A stretch of DNA of 38,813 bases from a virus (UHGV-0123627); one strand, 5' to 3'. Shown: positions 15,329-17,413, counted from the first letter of the stretch. Numbers and translations are program-made. The notes: generated from the letters alone by a model not told the origin.

Positions 15329-15837
15329 GAGAACTAAACCTCACCAAAGAGCAGCACGAGTGGCTGAATGGCTGGCTTGAACTGTGGGGCGCATGGGTTT
15401 ATTCAGGTCGTCTGGAAAAGCGCATGAGCAGCGTAATAGCGAAGTTCATGGAGAGCGTAGAGCCGGGAAGAGTTATGACAAGGCCAATGTGCAATGATGA
15501 TGATGGAATGTTGATTTCTCAGGTCGTCGATTCCGTCATGTACATTGACAAAAAAGCCTTTGGCATCCTCCTCAGCTACTACGCTCATGGTTCATCTAAG
15601 CGAGCAATTGCATCCTACTATCACGCGACTGCAAAGCCACGCAAGATGTGTGGACGTGGTGGCGAGGGATGGAGAAAACCTTCACTGGCAACCTGTAGAA
15701 ACGAAATTGACGACATCCTGAAAGCGTCATTATTTGTTTTGTACCAACCAATGCAAAATGCTTTCAAAATGCGTAAACGTGTTGAGAAAGTTAAGCATGT
15801 TGCTGTTAAAAACCTTGACATGCAATTAGCCATTTAG
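15319..15837 (+). CDS. Late-gene antiterminator Q (non-lambda, QuuD/phage 82-like family)
   Basis: 172-aa ORF directly after ninI; the ...[12 protein letters not shown]... and ...[14 protein letters not shown]...YYAHG... segments resemble the ERWGAW / CDDD motifs of QuuD-type Q proteins as remembered. Not lambda Q. Confidence 0.65.
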
Positions 15838-15844
15838 CTATAAT
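15815..15844 (+). promoter_or_regulatory. Candidate late promoter pR'
   Basis: TTGACA (about 15815-15820), 18-bp spacer, TATAAT (about 15839-15844); the -35 lies in the last codons of Q. Confidence 0.5.
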
Positions 15845-15854
15845 TAGAGGGTAA

Positions 15855-15897
15855 GCTGCCGTTAGTGACTCTTAAGTTGCAACGGTGGCTTTTTTTA
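15855..15897 (+). terminator. Candidate tR' terminator
   Basis: GCTGCCGTT ... AACGGTGGC hairpin (two G-U pairs, long loop) followed by TTTTTTTATTT. Confidence 0.4.
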
Positions 15898-15900
15898 TTT

Positions 15901-15975
15901 GGGTCAGTCGTATAAAGGTCATTACGGAAGGCTGTTAACCTTCTTATCGTGGTTCGAGTCCACGCTGTCCCGCCA
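15901..15975 (+). tRNA. tRNA-like gene, anticodon GTT (Asn) by manual fold
   Basis: Hand-folded cloverleaf: T-arm CGTGG-TTCGAGT-CCACG, anticodon arm GAAGG-CTGTTAA-CCTTC, 3' end GCCA; the acceptor stem has one T-T mismatch and the D stem is 3 bp. Confidence 0.5.
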
Positions 15976-15980
15976 AATAT

Positions 15981-16056
15981 GCTGGTTTAGCTCCAATGGT
16001 AGAGCAGTCGCCTTGTAAGCGAATGGGTAGCGGTTCAAGTCCGTTAACCAGCACCA
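15981..16056 (+). tRNA. tRNA gene, anticodon TGT (Thr) by manual fold
   Basis: Perfect 7-bp acceptor stem GCTGGTT/AACCAGC, D-arm GCTC/GAGC, T-loop TTCAAGT, encoded CCA end; anticodon loop CTTGTAA. Confidence 0.7.
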
Positions 16057-16300
16057 TAACTGAGCCGTAGCCACTGGCTATCCTGAATTCATCAGTGATA
16101 GTTACGCTGCGGCCTTCTACACATGACCTTCGTGAAAGCGGGTGGCATGAGGTTGCGCTAACAACCTCCTGCCGTTTTGCCCGTGCATATCGGTCACGAA
16201 CAAATCTGATTACTAAACACAGTAGCCTGGATTTGTTCTATCAGTAATCGACCTTATTCCTAATTAAATAGAGCAAATCCCCTCAATGAAGGGGTAGAGC

Positions 16301-16504
16301 ATGTACCGTATGGACAAAATCAGAGAATGGTTCAGTTACAGCTTCGGAGGACTGACTGCGATGGGTGGCATTCTCTCCCTGAATGACTGGGCTGTCATCA
16401 TTGGTATTCTTTGTACTGTCGGCACATTTGGCATCAACTGGTACTACAAGCGCAAAGAGCGCGAGGACAGATTGAATGGCAATGTCACCGGCACTACGAA
16501 ATAG
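16301..16504 (+). CDS. Holin (small two-TMD class, likely pinholin) with dual-start motif
   Basis: 67-aa [60 protein letters not shown]...; Met1 and Met4 separated by a basic residue; directly upstream of a SAR endolysin. Confidence 0.8.
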
Positions 16505-16979
16505 CGTAATAGCGGCGATAAGTGGCGGGGCTATTGCTATAGCATCTGTGTTAATCACTGGACCAAGTGGTAACGATGGCCTGGAAGGTGTCAGCTACAT
16601 ACCATACAAAGATATTGTTGGTGTATGGACTGTATGTCACGGGCATACAGGAAAAGACATCATGCTCGGTAAAACGTATACCAAAGCAGAATGCAAAGCC
16701 CTCCTGAATAAAGACCTTGCCACGGTCGCCAGACAAATTAACCCGTACATCAAAGTCGATATACCGGAAACAACGCGCGGCGCTCTTTATTCGTTCGTCT
16801 ATAACGTGGGCGCAGGCAATTTCAGAACATCGACGCTTCTTCGCAAAATCAACCAGGGCGATATCAAGGGCGCATGTGACCAGCTACGTCGCTGGACATA
16901 CGCTGGCGGTAAGCAATGGAAAGGGCTGATGACTCGCCGTGAGATTGAGCGTGAAGTCTGTTTGTGGGGGCAGCAATGA
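16476..16979 (+). CDS. SAR endolysin (lysozyme, phage 21 R / P1 Lyz type)
   Basis: N-terminal Gly/Ala-rich weakly hydrophobic signal-anchor-release segment ([19 protein letters not shown]) followed by a lysozyme-like domain; GAGGA 8 nt before the ATG. Confidence 0.9.
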
Positions 16980-17413
16980 GCAGAGTAACTGCGATTATCT
17001 CCGCTCTGGTTATCTGCATCATCGTCTGCCTGTCATGGGCTGTTAATCATTACCGTGATAACGCAATCGCCTACAAAGAGCAGCGCGATAAGGCCGCATC
17101 CACAATTGCTGACATGCAGAAGCGTCAACGTGATGTAGCAGAACTTGACGCCAGATACACAAAGGAGCTTGCTGATGCTAACGCGACTATCGAAAGTCTC
17201 CGTGCTGATGTTTCTGCTGGTCGTAAGCGCCTGCAAGTCGCCGCCACCTGTGCAAAGTCAACGACCAGAGCCAGCGGCATGGGCGATGGAGAAAGCCCAG
17301 GACTTACAGCAGATGCTGAACTCAATTATTACCGTCTCCGAAGTGGAATCGACAAGATAACCGCGCAGGTTAACTACCTGCAGGAATACATCAGGACGCA
17401 ATGCCTGAAATGA
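16976..17413 (+). CDS. Rz: Rz i-spanin
   Basis: [30 protein letters not shown]... matches the lambda Rz N-terminus; start overlaps the endolysin stop (ATGA). Confidence 0.9.
17175..17360 (+). CDS. Rz1: Rz1 o-spanin (lipoprotein), embedded in the +1 frame of Rz
   Basis: [20 protein letters not shown] then a Pro-rich segment; lipobox LVVSAC; wholly inside Rz. Confidence 0.75.

Follow-up and report, generated by a model that had tools for sequence, protein, structure and literature searches.

A probable sdi-type stem-loop at the dual start of a class II holin gene in a mosaic lambdoid phage genome

Results

Organization of the lysis region

The stretch of DNA analysed here, hereafter the window, is 38,813 nucleotides of viral origin (UHGV-0123627). 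It is a mosaic lambdoid genome, with an early region like that of lambda imm434/phage 434 and a late region like that of Sf6/P22-like phages. The Q antiterminator gene, the late promoter, tRNA-Asn and tRNA-Thr are located upstream of the lysis genes, an organization that matches the annotated late region of phage 21 (Table 1). An earlier note made on this DNA had called the gene that opens the lysis cassette a holin gene, and this assignment was confirmed both by its position within the cassette and by profile searches: its product matches PF16080 (HP1 holin family) with 75.1 bits, for a cutoff of 28.8. Its score against PF04971 (S21) is 19.5 bits, below the cutoff of 26, and an NCBIfam profile search of the holin returned no match. 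At the distal end of the cassette, the probable Rz1 likely starts at an internal Met near 17175. The holin region is found at 96–99% identity in numerous P22-like phages of Salmonella and E. coli, among them SEN22, Oslo, SPN9CC, ST104, SE1, BTP1, PS34 and PS119.

Several joints with phage 21 were apparent around the cassette. Positions 15853–16125, which comprise a terminator-like hairpin downstream of the promoter, both tRNAs and the ~60 nt that follow them, show near-identity to phage 21; the promoter/Q-binding region and the Q gene differ from it, and beyond ~16125 the sequence becomes a lambda-like leader. The 3' joint of the holin cassette (16420–16530) lies inside the endolysin gene. As DNA identity with phage 21 resumes at ~16529, the first ~17 endolysin codons (compared with MPPSLRKAVAAAIGG in phage 21) are part of the holin module. 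The endolysin opens with Met-Ala-Met (16476–16484), and that of a relative (L249) with Met-Gly-Met, in each case a close in-frame AUG pair with no basic residue in it.

Table 1. Features of the late region of the window, with positions counted from its first nucleotide
Feature	Position	Strand	Remarks
Late promoter pR' (TTGACA-18-TATAAT)	15815-15844	+	perfect sigma-70 promoter; coincides in position with the pR' annotated in phage 21; drives the hairpin-bearing transcript
tRNA-Asn	15901-15975		
tRNA-Thr	15981-16056		
Conserved structured late-mRNA leader	16057-16278	+	~97% identical to lambda; first ~60 nt common with phage 21
Segment A (near-repeat GAACAAAUCU)	16198-16207	+	
Segment B (GGAUUUGUUC)	16229-16238	+	
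A/U-rich single-stranded stretch	16246-16270	+	precedes the hairpin
Segment C (GAGCAAAUCC)	16271-16280	+	overlaps the first two C's of the hairpin 5' arm
Hairpin 5' arm CCCCU (CCCCT)	16279-16283	+	end of the leader homology to lambda; identical to the lambda sdi 5' arm
Hairpin loop CAAUGA (CAATGA)	16284-16289	+	lambda identity stops here
Hairpin 3' arm AGGGG, SD for ATG1	16290-16294	+	6 nt to ATG1
Single-stranded spacer UAGAGC (TAGAGC)	16295-16300	+	contains weak SD-like UAGAG, 10 nt before ATG4
Holin gene, long form (67 aa) from ATG1	16301-16504	+	HP1-family class II holin, two TMDs; putative antiholin
ATG1	16301-16303	+	
Holin gene, short form (64 aa) from ATG4 (MDKIREW...)	16310-16504	+	putative active pinholin; precedent in the S21 annotation
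ATG4	16310-16312	+	
SAR-type endolysin	16476-16979	+	95% aa identical to phage 21 R21, including the N-terminal 13-residue segment; 29-nt overlap with the holin 3' end
Rz i-spanin	16964-17413	+	
Probable Rz1 o-spanin, +1-frame ORF inside Rz	17145-17360	+	lipobox-like LVVSAC, then a Pro-rich segment

The holin gene carries two conserved in-frame starts

The holin gene begins with the codons ATG TAC CGT ATG, i.e., Met-Tyr-Arg-Met. The earlier note had described this opening, MYRMDK, as two in-frame starts separated by a basic residue. The two in-frame methionines and the basic residue between them are indeed present, but the separation consists of Tyr-Arg and not of a single basic residue. Relatives of the holin start with MYRM, MQRM, MHRM, MRM, MKM or MIRM, and members of a related group with MTRM, MTKM, MARM or MKRM. 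No change at Met1, the basic residue or the second Met is seen across 16 aligned relatives, and the residue that precedes the basic one is free to vary. Across the relatives the basic residue is encoded by five different codons (CGT, CGC, CGA, AGA and AAA); its conservation at the protein level therefore provides evidence that the N-terminal extension from Met1 is likely translated and under selection. Judged from composition only, TMD1 (50% Gly/Ala/Ser/Thr, KD 1.0) is less hydrophobic than TMD2 (KD 1.5), as in S21, and the tail has a net charge of +3. HP1 hol, the founding member of PF16080, is reported to have no dual start (PMC7312051), and the motif therefore belongs to the enterobacterial branch and not to the PF16080 family as a whole.

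In the MRMDK subgroup of relatives, found in Yersinia, Serratia and Pectobacterium prophages (L205, L214, L216, L217), the first 20 nt of the holin genes hold a hairpin of their own, GAAUGGACAAAUAUUC, which would place the second AUG inside its stem. This hairpin is absent from the window; from its predicted fold, it may possibly add a further layer of start-site control in that subgroup.

A predicted hairpin sequesters the Shine-Dalgarno sequence of the first start

Immediately upstream of ATG1, the earlier note had placed a hairpin CCCCU/CAAUGA/AGGGG, whose 3' arm would contain the SD sequence AGGGG 6 nt before the first start codon. Both letters and coordinates proved exact to the base (the sequence around the hairpin and the starts is AAAUCCCCUCAAUGAAGGGGUAGAGCAUGUACCGUAUGGAC). 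The note had also proposed that the 16270–16320 segment be folded, and the hairpin was recovered as the element of the MFE structure of that segment (MFE -12.4 kcal/mol; z = -2.2 relative to shuffles, with 6 of 200 shuffles folding equally well). It was present in both the MFE and centroid structures of 51-, 81- and 121-nt contexts, and in the MFE folds of 177- and 244-nt contexts as well. The 17-nt hairpin alone folds with about -7.4 kcal/mol (-7.4/-7.5), and the pairing probability of the SD in the window is 0.82. A frequent natural variant of the MYRM cassette, with one extra G, yields a hairpin of -10.2 kcal/mol.

We then compared the candidate ribosome-binding sequences by their anti-SD duplex energies. 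AAGGGG gave ~-6.3 kcal/mol and the spacer motif UAGAG ~-1.7 kcal/mol, for 0 to -1.2 kcal/mol in the case of UAAG in lambda; AGGGG itself lies 15 nt from AUG4. By this measure no proper SD for the second AUG was found in the window, nor in lambda or phage 21. A search against Rfam returned no family match except the two tRNAs. A terminator reading of the stem was rejected: a terminator-like match exists on the minus strand, where there is neither a proper T-run nor a converging gene, and a U-run is missing from the plus strand.

Stems as stable as this one are not rare: 1.4% of all 22-nt segments of the window fold at -7.4 kcal/mol or below, corresponding to 136 loci, or ~1 per 285 nt. Taken as a single sequence, the hairpin is thus only weakly above chance, and it is homology and comparison, rather than the fold itself, that lift it further. 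When the 31 nt upstream were shuffled and pairing was scored over -14 to -5, neither the window (0.51 vs 0.66) nor lambda showed an excess. This shuffle is uninformative because it retains the C-run, and it was replaced by a comparison with other gene starts (see below). When pairs were counted on a MAFFT alignment of 12 types of lambda-leader hairpins, 85% were paired against 82% in shuffles, a non-significant difference, since a C-run can pair with a G-run in any register; in addition, MAFFT had placed the CCUCC/GGAGG types one column off register. Covariation of the stem was also sought in close relatives, ~100 copies at 97–100% identity, which are too alike for it to appear: variation was confined to the loop and the spacer. 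A change that breaks the stem was found in 1 of ~96 lambda-type copies.

The 5' arm of the stem is that of lambda sdi

Positions 16068–16283 of the window are ~97% identical to the lambda S leader over ~216 nt, and this identity runs through CCCCU. Past that point, lambda reads UAUUGGGGGUAAGACAUGAAGAUG and the window reads CAAUGAAGGGGUAGAGCAUGUACCGUAUG. This places the mosaic break within the loop and identifies the 5' arm as the sdi arm of lambda itself. The likeness to lambda sdi, presented as an analogy in the earlier note, is hence borne out as homology, the leader and the 5' arm being lambda's own. The 3' arm and the spacer resemble both lambda and the relatives of the holin cassette itself, and the loop is hypervariable among relatives (CUAUGA, CAAUAA, CGAUUUUGA and others).

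The arrangement can be superimposed on the lambda map, which was defined by experiment. In lambda, a stem-loop at -21 to -7 governs access to GGGGG (-12 to -7), which serves Met1, the antiholin start, and an unusual weak SD, UAAG (-6 to -3), is used for Met3, the holin start; there is a further contribution from a downstream stem-loop, and antiholin and holin are initiated in a 1:2 ratio, in favour of the holin (bioRxiv 10.1101/2025.05.14.654169). In the window, the stem-loop spans -22 to -7, AGGGG -11 to -7 and UAGAG -6 to -2, which makes UAGAG the positional counterpart of the unusual SD of lambda. A counterpart of the lambda intragenic stem-loop (nt +31 to +47) was looked for within +1 to +75, where the predicted hairpins are not conserved among relatives.

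One leader precedes several types of dual-start holins

Viral contigs were scanned for the conserved leader motifs, and the element and gene that follow were tabulated. Downstream of the leader (GGATTTGTTC...CAAATCC), a stem with an unrelated loop was found at the same position every time, followed 4–7 nt further by a dual-start holin. At least four holin types occur behind this leader: PF05106 holins (lambda S, MKM; P22 gp13, MKKM), PF16080 holins (that of the window, MYRMDK, and another, MKNMADK), a PF16083 holin (MNKMPYK) and a holin with no Pfam match (MFRMNT). The stems include CCCC/GGGG, CCUCAC/GUGAGG (P22), CCUCAC/GUGGGG and CCUCC/GGAGG, and the loops, of 3 to 9 nt, are unrelated in sequence. 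Among 12 types, C-G occupies the third stem position in 8, U-A in 3 and U.G in 1. The 3' arm and spacer GGGGUAGAGCAUG are common to the MYRM and MFRM cassettes, and GGGGUAAGACAUG represents the 3' arm and spacer of the S-type genes of lambda and P22. This distribution indicates that the two arms move separately, the 5' one together with the leader and the 3' one together with the holin gene. As judged from these comparisons, the stem is a chimera to which the lambda leader and the new holin cassette contribute one half each, and joints of this kind are found ahead of several holin families.

The SD sequence is also buried in unrelated leaders

More distant relatives of the holin (50–82% identity) are present in Citrobacter, Raoultella, Yersinia, Photorhabdus, Serratia, Pectobacterium, Erwinia, Kluyvera and others. 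Their leaders are unrelated to that of lambda, and nearly all fold as a two-tier hairpin, consensus GCGCCAUCCGAnnnnUCGGAGGUGAGGCUAUG, which buries GGAGGUG. The S21 leader of phage 21 has the same two-tier design (ACGCAAUCCGUUACUGGCGGAGGCGUUGCUAUG). On an alignment made from sequence only, 81% of cells are paired; sliding the partners reduces this to 38–51%. Changes of orientation include a pair that is G-C in 16 sequences but C-G in 7, and another that is A-U in 14 but U-A in 2, and the covariation score of this alignment was matched by 5 of 500 shuffles.

To place these figures against other genes, the SD core was compared between dual-start holin leaders (35 distinct ones) and 174 control starts belonging to other genes of these loci. 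Its predicted pairing probability averages 0.86 in the holin set and 0.50 among the controls (0.47 for control starts with strong SDs), and it is at least 0.7 in 83% of the holin leaders vs 17% of the controls. The holin leaders compared are phylogenetically related, so that p-values overstate their independence and the effective sample is ~10–13 stem types; all of these types lie above the control median for SD pairing.

A possible alternative fold of the upstream leader

The leader that precedes the hairpin is very strongly structured: 16057–16245 folds with -87.9 kcal/mol, for -59.7 +/- 4.8 in shuffles (z = -5.9; 0 of 200). The main helices are kept in the P22, ES18 and g341c versions, which are 73–80% identical and show a few compensatory changes (GC/AU, UA/CG, CG/UA). 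No Rfam family was found for 16057–16245; one idea is that this part of the leader may protect the new 5' end after tRNA excision. A long-range helix UUACY:GGUAR proposed by RNAalifold was dropped, as it is missing from four other leader types. Within the leader, the near-repeats GAACAAAUCU and GAGCAAAUCC are each able to pair with GGAUUUGUUC (segments A, C and B of Table 1, respectively).

This raises another reading of the hairpin, as the last helix of a four-segment leader fold that would adopt either A:B together with the SD hairpin, or B:C, so that the fold of the whole leader would set the exposure of the SD. Segments B and C stand out as conserved islands against leaders otherwise ~73% identical, and they are perfect 10-bp complements in 8 of 10 leader types, lambda and the window having one G.U. 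The ensemble free energies of A:B and B:C are within ~1 kcal/mol in 5 of the 10 types, including the window, where P(B:C) is 0.51–0.59 (0.2–0.6 in P22-type leaders), and forcing B:C lowers SD pairing in all 10 (0.47–0.91 vs 0.64–1.00). However, B and C are invariant and B:C hence displays no covariation; in lambda A:B is strongly preferred and P(B:C) is ~0.01; and in the window the hairpin under B:C slips to CCUC/GGGG, with the SD still 0.91 paired. Moreover, phage 21 and other S21-type leaders have neither B nor C, yet possess the dual start and the hairpin, and structure predictions on segments of 200 nt are error-prone. We therefore regard this four-segment reading as doubtful.

In its broadest form, it would make the SD hairpin a plug-compatible joint and at the same time the terminal helix of a conserved structured late leader of ~240 nt, acting as an attenuator-like switch through which the folding of the leader, or its processing once the tRNAs are excised, would be coupled to the choice between holin and antiholin. 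As a plug-compatible joint, the 5' arm would move with the leader and the 3' arm, bearing the SD, with the recombined holin cassette (at least 4 types), the loop being the crossover zone; as an attenuator-like switch, pairing of GGAUUUGUUC with GAGCAAAUCC would remove part of the 5' arm. To this composite proposal, too, we give only a small chance.

Discussion

Among the traits that determine phage fitness, lysis timing is a major one, and the ratio between holin and antiholin is among the factors that set it. We consider it likely that the element described here serves translation initiation on a dual-start class II holin gene of the pinholin type and is controlled by an sdi-type stem-loop. 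Its most likely function, by analogy with lambda and phage 21, would be to partition initiation between a 67-aa antiholin and a 64-aa pinholin. Following these precedents, both starts of the window gene would be used and the stem would affect their ratio, and the window holin would display both antiholin activity and pinhole formation.

The late mRNA initiated at pR' would carry, in order, the two tRNAs, the structured leader, the A/U-rich unpaired stretch and the CCCCU/AGGGG hairpin. When closed, the hairpin would mask the only good SD, AGGGG, located 6 nt before AUG1. Six unpaired nucleotides would then remain before AUG1, for 15 before AUG4, including the weak UAGAG; with this geometry, initiation should occur mainly at AUG4 and yield the 64-aa holin. 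Breathing of the hairpin would expose the SD and let the 30S subunit initiate at AUG1, giving the 67-aa form, whose additional Met-Tyr-Arg would add positive charge at the N-terminus. In S107 and S21-71, extra N-terminal charge alters the topology of TMD1 and the long form is inhibitory (PMC9636201, PMC6116005). By analogy with S21 71, the added charge would slow the release of the weakly hydrophobic TMD1 and make the long form an antiholin. The stability of the hairpin would in this way set the holin:antiholin ratio and, through it, the timing of membrane depolarization and of SAR endolysin activation.

Besides the leader-wide fold considered above, the hairpin could be a general translational throttle: it would mask the only real SD, which both AUGs would use once it is open, and would set the holin dose and the lysis time rather than the choice of the start codon. 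There is no credible second SD, UAGAG giving ~-1.7 kcal/mol at 10 nt and AGGGG lying 15 nt from AUG4, and in lambda S changes in translation efficiency alone shift the lysis time (bioRxiv 10.1101/2025.05.14.654169). However, the lambda element, which has the same layout and a homologous 5' arm, gates the SD of Met1 and partitions initiation 1:2 (bioRxiv 10.1101/2025.05.14.654169); the closed stem is asymmetric with respect to the two starts, with 6 unpaired nucleotides before AUG1 vs 15 before AUG4; and the conserved Met1 and basic residue argue that two products matter. A pure throttle is in our opinion improbable. That the stem is a neutral by-product of recombination, lambda's C-run and the G-rich SD of the incoming cassette being complementary by chance and the stem having no regulatory role, is very unlikely: the mosaic joint does fall in the loop, any G-rich SD placed after a C-run pairs, composition-keeping shuffles pair equally well and equally stable hairpins are frequent in the window, but the stem is repeatedly retained across unrelated loops, leaders and holins, since at least 10 independent leader/holin combinations keep it with unrelated loops and U-A replaces C-G in three, the SD is also buried in unrelated leaders of the same holin family and in S21, neighbouring genes with equally strong SDs pair 0.47 on average vs 0.86, and only 1 of ~96 lambda-type copies has a stem-breaking change.

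Partition between two starts by an sdi-type stem thus remains the preferred reading, and the window element is a further case of the control device known from lambda, P22 and phage 21. The MYRM cassette, which is common in P22-like phages of Salmonella and E. coli, appears to use the RNA device of these three phages, and its annotation should for this reason list both a 67-aa and a 64-aa product. When the MYRM holin is transferred in engineering work, the stem should be carried along or altered deliberately. The findings are also of some interest for the mosaic joints of lambdoid phages, as one leader and one stem position serve unrelated dual-start holins with breakpoints in the loop. They do not overturn current understanding.

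Comparison with known systems

Among the closest known counterparts of the RNA element is that of lambda S. Both have a G-run SD for the first AUG in the 3' arm with a spacing of 5–6 nt, a weak SD-like sequence between the stem and AUG1, and two in-frame AUGs with an intervening basic residue. They differ in the loop, which is longer in the window (CAAUGA) than in lambda (UUAUU), in the stem (5 bp and about -7.4 kcal/mol in the window, 6 bp and -9.7 kcal/mol for lambda sdi) and in the starts, which are Met1/Met4 in the window and Met1/Met3 (Met-Lys-Met) in lambda. The holins themselves are unrelated, the window encoding a 67-aa class II protein of PF16080 and lambda the 107-aa class I S protein of PF05106. 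Gene 13 of P22 shares with the window the leader family (~73% identical), the position of the stem and the SD in the 3' arm; it opens with MKKM, its stem is CCUCAC/GUGAGG with loop GGUC (-8.7 kcal/mol), and its holin is lambda S-like and class I, whereas that of the window is class II. Conservation of the dual-start motif in P22 is said to have been described by Nam et al. in 1990 in J Bacteriol.

At the protein level, HP1 hol has in common with the window holin the PF16080 family and a SAR endolysin partner, and experimentally it is pinholin-like (PMC7312051). It differs by its length, 78 aa instead of 67, and by reportedly having neither a dual-start motif nor an antiholin (PMC7312051), whereas the window holin has a dual start.

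Phage 21 S21 is, like the window holin, a class II holin with two TMDs, starts at Met1 and Met4 and the MxxMDKI motif, and its Met-Lys-Ser-Met is nearer to the Met-Tyr-Arg-Met of the window than is the Met-Lys-Met of lambda. The DNA of ATGGACAAAATC, encoding Met-Asp-Lys-Ile, is identical in the window (16310–16321) and in phage 21 S21 (L242, 410–421), and beyond it the two proteins are barely alignable (BLASTP E = 0.27). In both phages the interval from pR' to the lysis genes contains tRNA-Asn and tRNA-Thr, and in both the SD is buried in a hairpin, which in phage 21 belongs to a different leader and has two tiers (UCCGUU/GGCGGA and ACGC/GCGU). The phage 21 annotation records S21-71, the antiholin, and S21-68, the holin, as the products of the dual start, and Barenboim et al. 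reportedly showed by experiment in 1999 that the S21 stem-loop controls the ratio between them. The closest functional parallel to the window gene is S21 71/68, a class II pinholin, rather than lambda S107/S105.
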